This document shows, one piece after another, positions 7,363-25,663 of a stretch of DNA of 30,748 nt (within the stretch, counting starts at the first letter, position 1; every line of letters starts with the position of its first letter). The DNA lies in assembly GCA_036257075.1 (NCBI GenBank), contig DATAGF010000183.1:1-30748 (forward strand), in the 5' to 3' direction. This stretch comes from Miltoncostaeaceae bacterium (GTDB lineage Bacteria > Actinomycetota > Thermoleophilia > Miltoncostaeales > Miltoncostaeaceae). The translations under genes and the position numbers were made by a program. The notes beneath the pieces are model-generated. The model searched no databases. It was not told where the DNA came from and was given only the letters and a program-made list of their open reading frames with translations.

Positions 7363-8508
7363 GTGACCGCGCTGCGCGAGACCCTTCAGCGGCACGTCGA
7401 CGGGGGAGCGGTGGCCGGGGCCGTTGCCCTGGTGGCCCGCGGCGACCGCGTCGCCCTCGAGGCCGTCGGCTCGGCCGGCCTCGAGGGCGACTCTCCGATG
7501 GCCAGGGACTCGATCTTCCGGCTCGCCTCGATCACCAAGCCCATCGTCGCGGCGGCCGTGATGATGCTGGTCGAGGACGGCCTGATCGCGCTGGACGACC
7601 CCGTCGCCGAGTGGCTGCCCGAGCTGGCGTCGCCGAGCGTGGTCCGCACGCCCTCGAGCCCGGTCGAGGACGTCGTGCCCGCGAGGAGGCCGATCACGGT
7701 GCTCGACCTGCTCACCTCGCGGGCCGGCTACGGCTTTCCGTCGGACTTCTCGCTGCCCGCGGTGCAGCTGCTGTTCACGGTCCAGCGGGACGGGCGCCGA
7801 CCCCAGGTCCCCCCGCCCCCGGACGAGTGGATGGCGGCCCTCGCGCGCATCCCGCTCCTTCGCCAGCCGGGCGAGGCGTGGCTCTACAACACCTGCTCCG
7901 ACCTCCAGGGGGTGCTGGTCACCAGGGTCTCGGGGAGGCCGCTCCCCGACTTCCTCGCCGAGCGCCTGTTCGAGCCGCTCGGCATGGCCGACGCCGCGTT
8001 CTGGGTGGAGCCCGGCCGGCTCCACCGCTTCACGAGCTACTACAGGGCCGGGCAGGAGGGCGGCCTGGAGCTCGCCGACGCCCCGGACGGGCAGTGGAGC
8101 CGCCCGCCGCCGTTCCCGTCCGGCGCCGGGGGCCTGGTCGGCACCGCCGATGACTGGCTCGCCTTCGCCCGGATGCTGCTCGCCGACGGGACCGCGGGCG
8201 GTCGCCGGCTGCTGTCGCCGGAGTCGGTGCGCCGCATGACCACCGACCACCTGACCCCCTCACAGCGCGAGGGCGGCGCGCTGTTTCTTGAGGGCCAGGG
8301 CTGGGGGTTCGGCGGCTCGGTGGACGTCGCCCGCATCGACCCCTGGAACGTCCCGGGCCGCTACGGCTGGGTCGGCGGCACCGGGACGTCGGCCCACATC
8401 GTGCCGTCGGCCGGCGCGGTCGCCATCCTGCTCACCCAGATCGCCGCGGCCGGGCCGACGCCGCCCGAGCCGATGCGCGACTTCTGGCGCCACGCCGCCG
8501 GCGGCTGA
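7363..8508 (+). CDS. Serine hydrolase, beta-lactamase/class C esterase family
   Basis: SxxK (FRLASITKP), LLTSRAG, YxN-like (WLYNT), GAGGLVGTADD and YGWVGGTGT motifs. Confidence 0.9.
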   Translation: MTALRETLQRHVDGGAVAGAVALVARGDRVALEAVGSAGLEGDSPMARDSIFRLASITKPIVAAAVMMLVEDGLIALDDPVAEWLPELASPSVVRTPSSPVEDVVPARRPITVLDLLTSRAGYGFPSDFSLPAVQLLFTVQRDGRRPQVPPPPDEWMAALARIPLLRQPGEAWLYNTCSDLQGVLVTRVSGRPLPDFLAERLFEPLGMADAAFWVEPGRLHRFTSYYRAGQEGGLELADAPDGQWSRPPPFPSGAGGLVGTADDWLAFARMLLADGTAGGRRLLSPESVRRMTTDHLTPSQREGGALFLEGQGWGFGGSVDVARIDPWNVPGRYGWVGGTGTSAHIVPSAGAVAILLTQIAAAGPTPPEPMRDFWRHAAGG

Positions 8509-8514
8509 GCGGCC

Positions 8515-9321
8515 TCAGAGCTCGGCCGACCTCCGCGCCGCGGCCAGCACCGCGTCGGCCACGTGGGCGCGCACCGCGCCGCGCTCCAGGACGGCGAGGC
8601 CGGCCAGCGTCGCGCCCGCCGGCGAGCTGACGCGCTGGCGCAGGAGGGCCGGGTCGGTGCCGTCCGCCAGCAGCGCCGCGGTCCCGGCCAGCACGGCGGC
8701 GGTGAGCTCGCGGGCCTGGGGCCGGGCGAGGCCGGCCGCGACCGCGCCCTCCTCGAGCCCCTCGGCGACCAGCGCGAGCAGCCCGGGGCCGCTGCCGGCC
8801 AGCGCCGTCGCCGGGGGGAACAGGCCCTCCGGCAGGGGCACGACGGCCCCGAGCGGGCGCAGGAAGGCGGTCAGCTCGGCCTCGCGCGCCGGGTCGAGGC
8901 CCCGCGTGGCCAGCGCCACCACCCCGGCACCGTGTCGCACGGCCAGGTTGGGCATGGTGCGGGCCAGGGCGGCGCCGGCCGCGGCGCCCGCCAGGCGGTC
9001 GAGGTCCCAGCCGGCGATGACCGACAGGAGCACTGCGCCCGGCGCCATCGCGCGGGCGACCTCCGGCAGGGCCTCGGCGGCGTCCTTCGGCTTGACGGCG
9101 ACGCAGACGAGATCGGCGCGCGCGGCCTCCTCGAGCGGCGCCGGCCGCCCGCCGACGTCGGCCACGGCGGCCTCGAGCGCGGCGGGCACGGCGTCGGCCA
9201 GCGCCAGCCGCTCGGCGAGGCCGGGGTGGCCCCGCATCAGGCCGGCCGCCAGCGCCCGGCCCATGGCGCCGGCGCCGACCACCCCGACGCGCGCCGGCCA
9301 GCCAGCCGCTCGCTCCCCCAT
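8515..9321 (-). CDS. proC: Pyrroline-5-carboxylate reductase
   Basis: GAGAMG, VKPKD, RTMPNL, TALAGSGPG and VSSPAGAT motifs. Confidence 0.92.
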   Translation of the reverse strand: MGERAAGWPARVGVVGAGAMGRALAAGLMRGHPGLAERLALADAVPAALEAAVADVGGRPAPLEEAARADLVCVAVKPKDAAEALPEVARAMAPGAVLLSVIAGWDLDRLAGAAAGAALARTMPNLAVRHGAGVVALATRGLDPAREAELTAFLRPLGAVVPLPEGLFPPATALAGSGPGLLALVAEGLEEGAVAAGLARPQARELTAAVLAGTAALLADGTDPALLRQRVSSPAGATLAGLAVLERGAVRAHVADAVLAAARRSAEL

Positions 9322-9890
9322 CAGTACTGGTTGAAGAAGCCCTTCTCCAGGAGGCGGGCCCGCTCCTCGGCCGACACCTCGACGTTGCGCGGCGTCAGCA
9401 TGAAGACCTTGTCGGCCACCCGCTGCATGCCGCCGTCGAGGGCGTAGGTGAGCCCGCTGGAGAAGTCGATGAGCCGCTTGGCGAGGTCGGTCTCGGCGCT
9501 CTGCAGGTTGAGGATGACCGGAATCGTCCCCTTGAACTTGTCGGCGATCTGCTGGGCGTCGTTGAAGCTCTTGGGGACCACCAGGTGGACCTCGGCAGGC
9601 TGGCCCCGCGACTCGACCGAGCGCATGGGCGCCGGCCGGCCGCGCGCCGGCTCCTCGGCGAAGATGTCGTCGAAGTCCGGCTCGCGGCGGCGCGGGCCGA
9701 GGCGGCGGACGTTGGGCCGCTCGCGGTAGCTGCGCTCCAGGTCGTCGTGCGCCGGGCTGCGCCGGTCGCGGTCGCGGTCGCGCTCCGGCTCCTCGTCGTA
9801 GCGGTCGTCGTCGTAGTCGTCGTAGTCGTCGGCCTCGTCGGCCATGCCGAAGTAGACGAGCGTGCGGTGCCAGAGGTCGCTGACGGCCAT
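9321..9890 (-). CDS. sepF: Cell division protein SepF
   Basis: PKSFNDAQQIAD, VILNL and KRLIDFSSGLTYALDG motifs. The N-terminus resembles the amphipathic helix followed by an acidic linker. Confidence 0.96.
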   Translation of the reverse strand: MAVSDLWHRTLVYFGMADEADDYDDYDDDRYDEEPERDRDRDRRSPAHDDLERSYRERPNVRRLGPRRREPDFDDIFAEEPARGRPAPMRSVESRGQPAEVHLVVPKSFNDAQQIADKFKGTIPVILNLQSAETDLAKRLIDFSSGLTYALDGGMQRVADKVFMLTPRNVEVSAEERARLLEKGFFNQY

Positions 9891-10604
9891 CTACGCCCCT
9901 CGGGATGTCGTGATCTGGGCCTTCTCGAGGATCCCGCGGCCGACCCGGACCTTCGTCGCACCCTCCTCGGCGGCGACCAGGTAGTCCTGGCTCGTCCCCA
10001 TGGAGAGGTCAGACAGGTCGTGACGTCCCCGCCACTCCGCTGCCAGCTCCTCCGCCAGGCGGCGGACGGCGACGAAGTGGGGCCGGCTGAGCTCCGCGTC
10101 GGTCTGAAACGGTGGCATCGCCATCAGGCCACCGACAACGAGGTCGGTGTGCTCCGACACATCCTCCATGAACGCCCGAAGCTGGGGCGGCACGATACCA
10201 CCTTTGGTCGATTCCCCGGCGACGTTGACTTCGACGAGGACCCGCGTGGGACCTTCCGAGCGCGCCCCGATGGCCTCCGCCAGGCGCGCCGAGTCGAGCG
10301 AGTGCAGCAGCCGCACCAAGCTGATCACCTCGCGGGCCTTCTTGCGCTGCAGGTGCCCGATGAAGTCGTAGGTCAGCCGGTCGCCCGCGGCCTCGCGGCG
10401 CGCGCGGAGGTCCTGGAGGCGGTTCTCCCCCACCACCTCCACGCCGGCCTCCAGCAGCGCCTCCGTCTGGTCGACGGGGATGTACTTGCCCGCCAGCACG
10501 AGCTCCACCGAGCCGCGCGGCCGCCCCGCGCGCCGGGCGGCCTCGTCGAGCCCCTCGCGCGCCTCGCGGAGGGCCGCCCGCAGGGCGTCGGGGTCGATGA
10601 TCAC
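9891..10604 (-). CDS. yggS: YggS/PLPBP pyridoxal phosphate homeostasis protein
   Basis: LAGKY, GENRLQD, FIGHLQRKK, GLMAMPP, LSMGTSQDY and EEGATKVRVG motifs. GTG at 10604 overlaps the pgeF TGA. Confidence 0.94.
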   Translation of the reverse strand: MIIDPDALRAALREAREGLDEAARRAGRPRGSVELVLAGKYIPVDQTEALLEAGVEVVGENRLQDLRARREAAGDRLTYDFIGHLQRKKAREVISLVRLLHSLDSARLAEAIGARSEGPTRVLVEVNVAGESTKGGIVPPQLRAFMEDVSEHTDLVVGGLMAMPPFQTDAELSRPHFVAVRRLAEELAAEWRGRHDLSDLSMGTSQDYLVAAEEGATKVRVGRGILEKAQITTSRGA

Positions 10605-11353
10605 GCCGCCGCCCACACCAGGCCCCCCTGGCGCCCGCAGGCCTCGCCATCGCGGCGGTGCGAGTAGAAGCGGGCGGCCTCGCAGCTCGTGCACGCCTCG
10701 ATGGTGACGACCGCGGCCTCGGGGACGCCCTCGGCGACCAGCGCGGCCCGCGCGGCCGCGGCGAGGTCCACCGCCGGCGGCCGCAGCACCGCCTCCCCGA
10801 AGGCCGCCGCGAAGCGGTCGCGGACCGCTTGCGACACCGGGTAGCAGCAGGGCCCCACGCCCGGGCCGATCGCGGCGCCGAGGCGCTCGGGCCGGCCGAG
10901 CGAGCGGACGGCCTCGCCGAGGACGCCGGCCACCAGGCCGCGCCAGCCGGCGTGGGCGGCCGCGACCGCCGGCTCGTCGCGCCGCCACAGCAGCACGGGG
11001 AGGCAGTCCGCGCCGAGCACCATGAGGCCCAGCCCCGGCGTGCGCGTCGCCAGGCCGTCGCCCTCGGGCCAGCCGCGCAGGGCGCCGGTGAACCGGCCGG
11101 GCGCCGACGGCGCCTCGAGCGTCCTCACGCGCGCGCCGTGGACCTGGCGCCCGAGGCTCACCCCGTGGGGGTCGATGTCGACCGCCTCGCATACCCGGCG
11201 GCGGTTGGCGCGCACCGCGGCGTCGGCGTCGTCGCGGTCCGAGCCCAGGTTCAGCTCGTCGAAGGGCGGCGCGCTGACGCCGCCGCGGCGGGTCGTGAAG
11301 ACCGCCCGTGCCGGCGCGCCCGTCGCCACCTCGATCAGCTCCGGCGCGCTCAC
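10601..11353 (-). CDS. pgeF: PgeF/YfiH (laccase-domain, purine nucleoside-processing) family protein
   Basis: FTTRRGGVS, QVHG, ADCLPVLL, HAGWRG, GPCCY and FYSHRR motifs. GTG at 11353. Confidence 0.92.
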   Translation of the reverse strand: MSAPELIEVATGAPARAVFTTRRGGVSAPPFDELNLGSDRDDADAAVRANRRRVCEAVDIDPHGVSLGRQVHGARVRTLEAPSAPGRFTGALRGWPEGDGLATRTPGLGLMVLGADCLPVLLWRRDEPAVAAAHAGWRGLVAGVLGEAVRSLGRPERLGAAIGPGVGPCCYPVSQAVRDRFAAAFGEAVLRPPAVDLAAAARAALVAEGVPEAAVVTIEACTSCEAARFYSHRRDGEACGRQGGLVWAAA

Positions 11354-23480: not shown

Positions 23481-23486
23481 AAGCTA
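23481..23486 (-). promoter_or_regulatory. Putative -10 box TAGCTT for leaderless murA-his, overlapping the upstream TAG stop
   Basis: TANNNT match, 8 nt before GTG 23472. Confidence 0.5.
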
Positions 23487-24650
23487 GCAGGAGGACAGCG
23501 CCGCGATCCCCGCGGCCAGGCGGGCCACGTCGGCCTCGTCGGTGAAGAAGCCGACCGAGGCCCGGAGCGCCTCCGGGCGCACGAGCGAGCGCACCACGAC
23601 GCCCCTGGCGGCGAGCTTTGCGGCCGTCTCGACGGGGGCTCTCCCGGCCACGGTGAAGGTCACCAGGCCCGCCTGCGGCCCTGGCGGGGTGAGCACCTCG
23701 ACGCCGTCGATCGCGGCCAGCGCCCGCCGCGCCGCGGCCTGGGCCTCGCGGACCCGGCCGTGGATCCACGGCCAGCCCAGCCCCGCCAGCCACGCCATTG
23801 CGGCATCCCAGGCCGCGAGCAGGGCGGCCGGCCCCGTGGACGCCTCGTAGCGGCGCGCGCCCGGCTGGGGCTCCATCGCCCCCTCCTCGCCGTGCGCGTC
23901 GCCGCCCGCGGCGCTCTCCAGGCCCGCCACGGTCACGTCGATGCGCTCCATGGCCTCCGGGCGCACCCAGAGCACCCCGAGCCCCTCGGGCCCGAGCAGC
24001 CACTTGTGGGCGGGGAAGGCGTAGGCGTCGGCGCCCAGGGCCGCCGCGTCCACGGGAATCGTGCCGACTGCCTGGGCGCCGTCGACGACGACCAGGGCGC
24101 CCGCCGCGCGGGCCGCGCGGGCGGCGCCGGGCACGTCGAGCACCGCCCCGGTCGACCAGGAGACGTGCGAGAGCGCCACCAGGCGCGTCCGGGGCCCGGC
24201 GACCTCGCCGACCGCCGCCTCCAGGTCACCGCCGGCGCGCTCGGCACCGATCACCCGCAGGCGCGCCTCCGAGCGCCGCGCCACAACGGCGAGCGGCACC
24301 GTGAGGCCCGGGTGCTCCAGGGCCGTCGTGACGATCTCGTCGCCGGGGCGCCAGTCGATGCCCCAGGCGGCGAGGTTCACGCCCTGGGTGGTGTTGGCGG
24401 TGAGGGCGACGGTCTCAGGGCCGGCCCCGACGAGCTCCGCCGCCGCCGCGCGGACCGCCGCCGCCCGGGCCGCGCTGCGGCCGAAGCCCTCGAGGCTCCC
24501 GCGAGCCCGCGCGGGCGTCTCCGCGGCCCAGTCGGCCAGCGCCCGCGCCGCCGGCAGGCAGAGGGGGCCGATGGCGCCGCTGTTGAGGTAGGTCGTGGAC
24601 GCCAGCACGGGCAGCTGGGCCCGCACCTCGGCCAGGTCGGGTGGCGTCAC
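23484..24650 (-). CDS. PLP-dependent class V aminotransferase-fold enzyme (cystine C-S lyase/CefD/EgtE-like)
   Basis: YLNSGAIG, LEHP, LSHVSWSTG, VDGAQAVG, AHKWLLGPEG and LRAS motifs. It lacks the C-terminal catalytic Cys loop of IscS/SufS. Confidence 0.87.
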   Translation of the reverse strand: MTPPDLAEVRAQLPVLASTTYLNSGAIGPLCLPAARALADWAAETPARARGSLEGFGRSAARAAAVRAAAAELVGAGPETVALTANTTQGVNLAAWGIDWRPGDEIVTTALEHPGLTVPLAVVARRSEARLRVIGAERAGGDLEAAVGEVAGPRTRLVALSHVSWSTGAVLDVPGAARAARAAGALVVVDGAQAVGTIPVDAAALGADAYAFPAHKWLLGPEGLGVLWVRPEAMERIDVTVAGLESAAGGDAHGEEGAMEPQPGARRYEASTGPAALLAAWDAAMAWLAGLGWPWIHGRVREAQAAARRALAAIDGVEVLTPPGPQAGLVTFTVAGRAPVETAAKLAARGVVVRSLVRPEALRASVGFFTDEADVARLAAGIAALSSC

Positions 24651-24692: not shown

Positions 24693-24722
24693 TTGCGTCC
24701 CCCCCGGGCCGATCGATATAAC
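24693..24722 (+). promoter_or_regulatory. Near-consensus primary-sigma promoter TTGCGT-N18-TATAAC, 7 nt before ATG 24730 (leaderless)
   Basis: Both hexamers are read directly from the sequence and form an AT-rich patch in very GC-rich DNA. Confidence 0.7.
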
Positions 24723-24729
24723 GGCCTCG

Positions 24730-24987
24730 ATGAGGCTCCTGCGAATGATGCCCGGCTACGGGGAGACCCTGATCGCCGAGGGCGACCCGCTCCAGGCGGA
24801 CGAGCGCGAGCGCCTCCTGAGCGAGTTCCGGCGCCAGCTGGACGAGGGCATGTGGGCCGCCGTCCCGGTCGCCGACCCCGGCACCGGCCGGCGGGAGGCG
24901 GTCCTCGTCACGGACTTCGACGAGATCCCGGAGGACGCCGAGCGCGTGCTGTTCTGGCCGCGCGCCGCCGGCGGCGGCGTCTCCTAG
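24730..24987 (+). CDS. 85-aa putative beta-grasp (ubiquitin/MoaD/ThiS-like) protein ending ...VLFWPRAAGG-GVS
   Basis: High GC3 and a promoter upstream. The C-terminus IPEDAERVLFWPRAAGG parallels the MoaD-type L.DGDEV..FPPV.GG. Confidence is for the CDS; the fold is an inference. Confidence 0.8.
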   Translation: MRLLRMMPGYGETLIAEGDPLQADERERLLSEFRRQLDEGMWAAVPVADPGTGRREAVLVTDFDEIPEDAERVLFWPRAAGGGVS

Positions 24988-24994
24988 GCGCGCG

Positions 24995-25663
24995 GTGGGC
25001 GGGCTCGGGGTCGTCGTCCTGGTCGTGACCTTGGGCGCGCTCGCGGCCGTCATGGGCCGCCCGATGCTGGGGCGCCGGCTGCGGACGCGCGGCCGGCGCA
25101 GTGCGCTCCCCTCCTGGATCCGCGAGCCGCCCCTCCCGCCCGAGGAGGCCGAGCAGCGCTCCCTGGAGCTCCTGCGCTCGGTCGTCAACGAGGACGAGTG
25201 GGCGCAGTTCTGCGAGCTCGGCTTCATCTGCGTCATCGGCCGCCGGGCGCCGCGGCCGGGCCGGCCCGCCGGCGGGCCGCCGCGCTACCGCTACCTGATC
25301 TACCCCCACCTGCCCGTGGTCGCCCTGCTGCCGCGCTCGATGGCGCCGGTGCGCGAGTACTGCGTGCAGTTCCCGGAGCGCGGGGGCGAGGGCGAGGGGA
25401 CGCCGCTCCTCCCCAGGGGCGACGACGTGCTGGCCAAGTGGATGACCCTGCGCGCCGACGAGGACCGCCTGCTGTCGTACGCGAACGTCGGCAACGCCGG
25501 CTGCCAGGTGCCGCTGAGCCGCATCGAGCGCGACATCGCGCGGCTCGAGCGCTGGACCGCGCGCGCGCGCAAGGATCAGAACGGCGGCTCGGGCTCCCCC
25601 GCCGGCGGCTCGCCGGGGGCGGCCGGGAGGTCCTCGGCCGTCAGCTCCTCGATCCTGCGCTGA
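24995..25663 (+). CDS. Hypothetical protein with an N-terminal TM helix and a Cys-containing soluble domain
   Basis: Starts 7 nt after the small GG protein and has high GC3. Hydrophobic stretch GLGVVVLVVTLGALAAVM; notable segments RYRYLIYP, EYCVQFP, LPRGDDVLAKW and DEDRLLSYAN. The last 29 codons overlap xseB antisense. Confidence 0.82.
   Translation: MGGLGVVVLVVTLGALAAVMGRPMLGRRLRTRGRRSALPSWIREPPLPPEEAEQRSLELLRSVVNEDEWAQFCELGFICVIGRRAPRPGRPAGGPPRYRYLIYPHLPVVALLPRSMAPVREYCVQFPERGGEGEGTPLLPRGDDVLAKWMTLRADEDRLLSYANVGNAGCQVPLSRIERDIARLERWTARARKDQNGGSGSPAGGSPGAAGRSSAVSSSILR

Follow-up and report, generated by a model that had tools for sequence, protein, structure and literature searches.

What do two adjacent genes encode that run opposite to the housekeeping operons on either side of them and that match no named family? 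This question is raised by positions 24693 to 25663 of a stretch of DNA from a Miltoncostaeaceae bacterium (GenBank assembly GCA_036257075.1, contig DATAGF010000183.1); we refer to the whole stretch, which is 30,748 nt long, as the window. An earlier reading of these letters (the sequence-only reading) took the first open reading frame (ORF1) for a divergent ubiquitin-like modifier or sulfur carrier ending near Gly-Gly, and the second (ORF2) for its membrane-anchored partner. The analysis described here indicates that ORF1 and ORF2 probably make up an undescribed carrier or modifier system. In particular, we tentatively favor the reading that they are a carrier and partner in the style of MoaD and MoaE, activated in trans, because the Gly-Gly is invariant, the linkage of the two genes is strict, the tail and the conserved site of the partner share one predicted interface, Gly-Gly and partner appear to be lost jointly, and the canonical carriers of this clade need trimming. 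(MoaD and MoaE are encoded by adjacent genes for a small Gly-Gly subunit and a large subunit into which the tail of the small one inserts; their E1 activating enzyme is encoded elsewhere.)

ORF1 (24730-24987, plus strand) encodes an 85-residue protein ending F-W-P-R-A-A-G-G followed by G-V-S, and ORF2 (24995-25663, plus strand) encodes 222 residues from a GTG start, leaving a gap of 7 nt between the two; the sizes, spacing and orientation that had been read from the sequence proved exact. The GC content of the window is 77%, so that frames are open on every strand. That ORF1 and ORF2 are chance ORFs of such DNA is nevertheless ruled out by their GC content at the first, second and third codon positions (0.78/0.48/0.99 for ORF1 and 0.74/0.57/0.99 for ORF2), a pattern not found in the overlapping antisense and out-of-frame ORFs, and by their hundreds of homologues (1130 for ORF1 and 340 for ORF2). 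Thus, both are genuine genes.

The codons of Gly81-Gly82 lie at 24970-24975. In alignments this pair is invariant: it is kept in 32/32 close homologues, in which 36 columns are invariant, including F-W-P-R-A at residues 75-79, and in 30/30 genomes of five GTDB families. In the distant families the protein ends R-V-I-F-F-P-(R/K/P/Q)-A-(A/S)-G-G. The residues past the Gly-Gly are unconserved and number 0-9 in the 30 genomes and up to 12 in metagenomic homologues; those of ORF1 itself are G-V-S (codons 83-85, 24976-24984), and 8 of the 30 proteins stop exactly at the glycines. Homologues therefore do end at or near Gly-Gly, as had been anticipated. None of the 1130 homologues is named, and the sources label them Thermoleophilia, Miltoncostaeaceae or Solirubrobacterales. 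ORF1 occurs in single copy in 43/201 sampled genomes of the class (14/36 in its own GTDB family and 12/13, 12/17, 3/3 and 1/1 in four others) and was not found in four other families of the class (0/126 genomes). In a phylum-wide sample the superfamily turned up in 10/301 genomes, every one of them within the same class, to which the cassette, as far as these genome samples reach, is confined. When the ORF1 profile was run against 1.84 billion representative proteins it gathered 187 clusters and never reached ThiS or MoaD. Neither ORF1 nor ORF2 has a Pfam match at E ≤ 10 or an NCBIfam match.

The guess of two strands, a helix and three further strands that had been made for ORF1 agrees with its predicted secondary structure. 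An AlphaFold2 model built on the alignment (predicted local distance difference test, pLDDT, 88; predicted template modelling score, pTM, 0.78) has strands at residues 2-7 and 10-17, a helix at 23-38 and strands at 41-48, 55-60 and 72-77, with a short turn after residue 60; residues 81-85 are predicted to be disordered (pLDDT < 50). Ubiquitin has the same order of elements at almost the same positions. A Foldseek search of the PDB returned Raf RBD, DIX, ubiquitin, ISG15, SUMO and PB1, all with E values of at least 0.1 and template modelling (TM) scores of 0.3-0.47. The same beta-grasp picture, again weak, came from a search of Swiss-Prot models, and an ESM Atlas fold search returned RA domains at TM 0.51-0.57 over 75 residues. 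It is the uniformity of these lists, in which nearly all matches are beta-grasp domains, rather than any single score, that suggests a beta-grasp-like fold for the ORF1 model.

At the level of sequence, the likeness of ORF1 to known carriers appears real and is limited to the last strand and the tail. In an hhalign comparison of the ORF1 superfamily with 26 bona fide members of the ThiS family, taken from the window's own genome and from related ones, the probability was 1.1% and only residues 69-82 were aligned, with D-A-E-R-V-L-F-W-P-R-A-A-G-G of ORF1 facing D-G-D-E-I-T-I-L-P-A-V-A-G-G. The tail motif shared with the canonical ThiS-family carriers reads D-x-E/D-R-V-x-F-[FW]-P-x-A-x-G-G. A six-frame scan of the cassette-bearing genome G005 with PF02597 picked up five other genes and not ORF1. 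The ORF1 profile had no match among PDB sequences, where neither the ORF1 nor the ORF2 profile gave anything below E 0.5, and searches of the ESM Atlas returned clusters of ORF1's own family, the one cluster named ThiS scoring 0.78, below the level of a lead. Thus, of the claim that ORF1 is a divergent ubiquitin-like modifier or sulfur carrier, the invariant Gly-Gly stands and a beta-grasp-like fold is suggested, whereas homology to ThiS or MoaD, or of the cassette to E2 conjugating enzymes, was not found. Note that ORF1 is unlikely to replace ThiS in thiamine synthesis; G005 keeps a typical 66-residue ThiS together with four other PF02597 genes. The canonical ThiS-family carriers of the clade commonly bear 1-4 unconserved residues past the Gly-Gly, which implies routine trimming by a JAB peptidase.

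Is the second gene a true partner? An ORF2 homologue lies directly downstream of ORF1, on the same strand, in 29/29 loci for which the DNA is available (the contig of the thirtieth ends first), so that the proposed linkage of the two genes is conserved. The proposed membrane anchor also held up: residues 3-20 of ORF2 (25001-25054) are predicted to form a helix (pLDDT 87-88). This helix is hydrophobic and is followed by an Arg-rich linker, and by the positive-inside rule the conserved core that comes next (residues about 41-187; 25115-25555) would therefore be cytoplasmic. An alignment of 38 ORF2 sequences, which included distant orthologues and two partners from the paralogous cassette described below, has as its invariant residues G76, C123, L139, P140, D143, E156, N164, G169 and R179. 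Cys123 (codon at 25361-25363) is kept in 38/38, and in these alignments no other cysteine is invariant in both partner families; the conservation does not extend to Cys79 or Cys170. Not one of the 340 ORF2 homologues has a Pfam domain, and ORF2 gave no lead in PDB sequences or in the ESM Atlas. Modeled alone with AlphaFold2, ORF2 had an overall pLDDT of 54, falling to 30-37 at residues 110-170, and a fold search with this low-confidence model as the query was uninformative.

We modeled ORF2 residues 40-200 together with ORF1, each with a diverse alignment, and took the median of three runs. The interface score ipSAE (interaction prediction score from aligned errors) was 0.69 for the pair and 0.01 for the best of three controls; the ipSAE mark used was reached by 58/80 solved complexes and by 2/110 mismatched pairs, counts that are a rough guide here, where our own alignments were used. 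The interface comprises residues 4, 6-15, 39-46, 54-59, 74 and 76-82 of ORF1, and thus the tail as far as Gly82, and residues 43-65, 123-129 (the loop that carries Cys123), 136-140, 143 and 146-164 of ORF2. The model supports binding of ORF1 to ORF2, with the tail and the partner's invariant site falling in one interface.

The same model accords with a different explanation, which we regard as nearly as likely as a carrier and its partner: the two proteins may form an obligate non-covalent heterodimer in which ORF1 is an adaptor or regulatory subunit of ORF2, its tail is a flexible docking peptide, and no chemistry takes place at its C-terminus. The predicted interface, with 109-120 confident contacts, is large and spans most of the invariant residues of ORF1. 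ORF2, in which residues 110-170 have a pLDDT of 30-37 when it is modeled alone, reaches 80-82 within the complex, although the two models come from different programs and alignments, so that the difference may not reflect folding on binding. Tails of 0-12 residues past the Gly-Gly are tolerated, no E1, E2 or JAB gene is linked to the cassette, and many beta-grasp proteins, YukD among them, are not conjugated, according to a 2006 survey of prokaryotic ubiquitin-like proteins (PMC1779556). On the other hand, an invariant Cys accompanied by invariant Asp, Glu, Asn and Arg resembles an active site, and the two glycines are strictly invariant across two paralogous families, which is beyond the usual need of a docking peptide.

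The second of these families (family B, as opposed to family A of ORF1) was first seen as weak second matches in two genomes, which encode 74-residue proteins with 38% identity to ORF1 and with L-R-R-P-I-A-G-G as their very last residues. All 17 aligned members of family B stop exactly at the Gly-Gly. Solirubrobacterales have many family-B proteins, and the members among the best matches listed are all 74 residues long. In the first two genomes a partner gene for a protein of 228-234 residues with two membrane helices follows 12-18 nt downstream, and its C-terminal domain aligns with the ORF2 profile at an hhalign probability of 81.5% (E 1.1e-5). These partners keep the Cys and the LP-x-GD, DE and AN motifs, as do four more family-B partners, and in four further genomes the two genes of the family-B pair stand -1 to 11 nt apart. 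Taken together, the alignments indicate that a second, paralogous cassette exists. One family-B member is labelled MazF by its source, a name that has no support. Note also that the family-B cassette of genome G119 (L054:4149-4370, minus strand) lies after a gene for a LuxR-type response regulator and two large ORFs (564 and 539 residues), which may encode a sensor kinase and a membrane protein, and precedes a metallo-beta-lactamase-fold gene, and that the family-B cassette of G041 lies beside leuS.

Three distant relatives of ORF1 (P0355, P0379 and P0387; L051 and L052) have no Gly-Gly and end F-L-R-R-...; they have a Cys-Cys or Cys-Arg-Arg loop and stand alone or before an ABC ATPase gene. 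No ORF2-like neighbor was found beside these three, on what are short contigs, and this suggests that Gly-Gly and partner occur together.

The variable ends of family A, the invariant Cys of ORF2 and the presence of the tail in the interface also raise the idea that ORF2 is a Gly-Gly-specific cysteine peptidase, which would mature ORF1 or release its C-terminal tail as the product. We consider this highly improbable: family B and 8/30 family-A proteins already end at the Gly-Gly but have lost neither the partner nor its Cys, the tails show no conservation and in many cases comprise 1-3 residues, and the two partner families have no invariant His in common.

If ORF1 is a carrier, where is the machinery that would activate it? 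The window contains no E1, E2 or JAB gene, as had been noted from its sequence; a ThiF-family E1 and a Prok-JAB gene were found elsewhere in the genomes. In the genome to which the window belongs, a metagenome-assembled genome that is 74% complete, contig C256 carries at about 8500-10800 (L002, L006) a cluster of a ThiF E1, a ThiS-family carrier that ends Gly-Gly plus A-R, a cysteine-synthase-type PALP gene and a Prok-JAB gene. This arrangement corresponds to operon type 4c of Iyer et al. 2006 (PMC1779556). All cassette genomes have a ThiF-family E1, and several have a single one; in G137 and G119 this single E1 is a rhodanese-ThiF fusion (L094:103-1284, plus strand; L095:983-2170, minus strand) with the rhodanese N-terminal to ThiF, the opposite of the domain order of the usual MoeZ-type fusion. 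Rhodanese-fused E1 enzymes are of the sulfur-transfer type and make thiocarboxylates. It is because the only E1 available there is of this type that we give more weight to a sulfur carrier. Prok-JAB was present in 10/10 cassette genomes checked; 5/10 have it about 2 kb from the E1, and the others have it at a distance of 5-50 kb from the E1 or on a different contig. It is never close to the cassette, from which E1 and JAB are megabases distant.

The same evidence bears on conjugation of the ubiquitin type, in which ORF2 would be a very divergent, membrane-anchored E2-like enzyme that binds ORF1 through a thioester at Cys123 before transferring it to a protein or, as for Atg8, to a membrane lipid. 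The order and positions of the ORF1 elements mirror textbook ubiquitin, the residues past the Gly-Gly resemble those of ubiquitin-type precursors, and the ORF1 tail and the Cys loop of ORF2 both fall in the predicted interface. Moreover, ORF2 has the segment Y-P-H-(K/L)-P-(I/V)-V-A with the invariant Cys 12-15 residues on, which recalls the Y-P-F-K-P-P ... Cys segment of E2 enzymes. We nonetheless consider this reading unlikely. ORF2 had no match to the UQ_con, RWD or Prok-E2 families at E ≤ 10, and its hhalign probability against two actinobacterial Prok-E2_B proteins was 0.1%; a six-frame scan of the cassette genomes for Prok-E2_B found no match. There is no HPN motif before the Cys, and His105 is missing from the family-B partners. 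The single E1 of G137 and G119 is fused to rhodanese and thus of the thiocarboxylate-making type. A bolder version, in which the pair would be a minimal membrane ubiquitin-like system with no dedicated E1 and ORF2 by itself would take up the Gly-Gly end on Cys123 and transfer it to a membrane lipid or an envelope-facing protein, strikes us as improbable; if true, bacteria would have a counterpart of Atg8-type lipidation, or a new activation chemistry would be involved.

Several points weigh against the reading of ORF1 and ORF2 as a carrier and its partner. ORF1 has no detectable homology to ThiS or MoaD by the Pfam search, the PF02597 scan or hhalign. The interface of the modeled complex is a list of residues rather than of residue pairs and is silent on how close Gly82 comes to Cys123, and the location of most invariant ORF1 residues within it is what a permanent non-covalent complex also predicts. 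A ThiF-family E1 is near-universal in the class (192/201 genomes), and its presence is uninformative for the cassette; in no genome were E1 and JAB found near the cassette. In addition, the synteny described below offers hints that are weak, since the pair appears to have its own promoter. If the carrier-and-partner reading is nevertheless correct, the residues past the Gly-Gly would be trimmed by the JAB peptidase of the genome, and the rhodanese-fused ThiF-type E1 would adenylate the terminal glycine and make it a thiocarboxylate. The ORF1 tail would then insert into ORF2, where, on the inner face of the membrane, Cys123 together with D143, E156, N164 and R179 would use the activated group or pass it on. 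That carriers are first trimmed and then activated is plausible in this clade, since its canonical carriers bear residues past the Gly-Gly and adjoin E1, PALP and JAB genes.

How is the cassette expressed? A promoter-like element precedes ORF1 on the plus strand (24693-24722), with the -35 box TTGCGT at 24693-24698, an 18-nt spacer and the -10 box TATAAC at 24717-24722, and the ATG of ORF1 at 24730 lies 7 nt past the end of the -10 box. A generic sigma-70 scan gave no match at this element because it demands a T at the last -10 position. Six loci of the window's family (L010, which is its own, together with L009 and L013-L016) have the element TTGCG(T/C)-N17/18-T-A-(T/G)-A-A-C at 7-9 nt from the ATG, and eight loci of distant families have CATAAT-like boxes that precede the start codon by 6-9 nt. 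In other loci a box about 45-55 nt upstream is accompanied by a GGAG-like site, and these loci, judged by that layout, are leadered. The conservation of the arrangement among relatives suggests that the window's locus has a real promoter and a leaderless ORF1 mRNA, and the cassette appears to have a promoter of its own even where it lies downstream of thiD. The sequence-only reading was thus right that a promoter element is present and that the start is leaderless, a spacing of 6-9 nt being kept in relatives, whereas its description of the element as near-consensus was too strong for one that a generic scan misses.

In four GTDB families the pair stands in the same-strand string ffh, rpsP, trmD, rplS, lepB, rnhB, a Mg-chelatase-type ATPase gene (assigned by Pfam Mg_chelatase/ChlI), dprA, thiD, ORF1, ORF2 and ilvD; in its own family it appears to have moved, as a unit, to a site between a class V aminotransferase gene and xseB. 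The thiD and ilvD neighbors of the four families and the divergent class V aminotransferase gene of its own family are thus two independent contexts, and the neighbors provide weak hints of a role in sulfur or thiamine metabolism. Neighborhoods of 20 kb in 14 genomes, searched for linked E1, E2 or peptidase genes, hold housekeeping genes only. To judge from these contexts the cassette is self-contained, single-copy and vertically inherited; a toxin-antitoxin system or mobile element is ruled out by its single-copy, vertical occurrence within a conserved housekeeping string. Apparent fusions of ThiD to ORF1 are products of frameshifted contigs and confirm only that the genes are adjacent. (The six sequences concerned, P0282, P0342, P0344, P0296, P0350 and P0373, which join ThiD to ORF1 or ORF1 to ORF2, come from error-rich contigs and contain Arg-rich out-of-frame stretches.)

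In the window the flanking genes lie on the minus strand: murA (assigned to the EPSP_synthase family) and the class V aminotransferase gene (23484-24650) upstream, and xseB (identified by Pfam Exonuc_VII_S) and xseA downstream. The aminotransferase gene is divergent from ORF1, with its start 79 nt from the ORF1 ATG, and this pairing is conserved only in the window's own GTDB family. At the other end, the last 88 nt of ORF2 (25576-25663, plus strand) overlap the convergent xseB; there the codon-position GC falls to 0.93/0.59/0.83 and the coding signature is gone. Since this signature is lost and many ORF2 orthologues stop soon past an R-W motif, the last 29 residues of ORF2 are probably an accident of the overlap and lie outside the functional core. 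Own-family ORF2 orthologues share a conserved C-terminal S-A-V-S-S-S-I-R-R, which, on the basis of the codon-position GC, probably mirrors in antisense the conserved end of xseB rather than serving as a functional tail.

Both proteins lie outside the curated families and are labelled hypothetical by their sources, and we found no description of either in the literature; in particular, no paper linking Thermoleophilia to ubiquitin-like proteins was found, and the module is not described in those parts of the 2006 survey (PMC1779556) where actinobacteria or membranes come up. If the Gly-Gly end is chemically activated, the cassette would represent a new branch of the prokaryotic ubiquitin and sulfur-carrier world, with a carrier family that profiles do not link to ThiS or MoaD, an entirely new membrane-anchored cysteine enzyme and, in a single class of actinobacteria from soil and sediment, a duplication that gave two paralogous cassettes. 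Activation would also mean that Gly-Gly carrier systems can escape domain databases, and would suggest that a product, sulfur-containing or conjugated, is made at the membrane. If instead the two proteins form only a non-covalent complex, they would still be a clade-defining two-protein module with a testable interface.

How, then, does the cassette compare with known systems? Ubiquitin and E2 systems, including the bacterial operons that combine E1, E2 and JAB genes (PMC1779556) and those of the Bub/Bil type (structural match 9eav), resemble ORF1 in the order of its elements and in a Gly-Gly tail with extra residues, and resemble ORF2 in a single Cys that looks essential and, by prediction, contacts the tail. 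They differ in that the cassette has no E1, E2 or JAB neighbors and that ORF2 lacks an HPN motif and fails every E2 sequence test; moreover, unlike mobile defence islands, the locus is vertical and single-copy, with a synteny like that of the core genome. YukD and EsaB are small beta-grasp proteins that go with a membrane protein, possibly without conjugation, as ORF1 and ORF2 may do; YukD, however, has no conserved terminal Gly-Gly and lies in ESX/type VII secretion loci, whereas here no secretion genes are linked and the Gly-Gly is invariant. The closest parallel to our favored reading is with MoaD and MoaE and with the ThiS, MoaD and CysO pairs (PF02597; E1 enzymes MoeB, ThiF and MoeZ; JAMM peptidases Mec and QbsD), whose carriers, like ORF1, have about 80 residues and a flexible tail of the form hydrophobic-hydrophobic-P-x-x-x-G-G, and have a beta-grasp fold that the ORF1 model resembles. 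As for MoaD, the ORF1 gene adjoins that of a partner which receives the tail (here by prediction) and the E1 is encoded elsewhere, and QbsE and the canonical carriers of the clade share with ORF1 the extra residues past the Gly-Gly. In contrast to ThiS and MoaD, ORF1 is restricted to one class, shares no sequence homology with them beyond its last 14 residues, and is known here from sequence and models; and ORF2 is unrelated to MoaE, ThiG and CysM, and represents instead a new family whose members are anchored in the membrane and share an invariant Cys.

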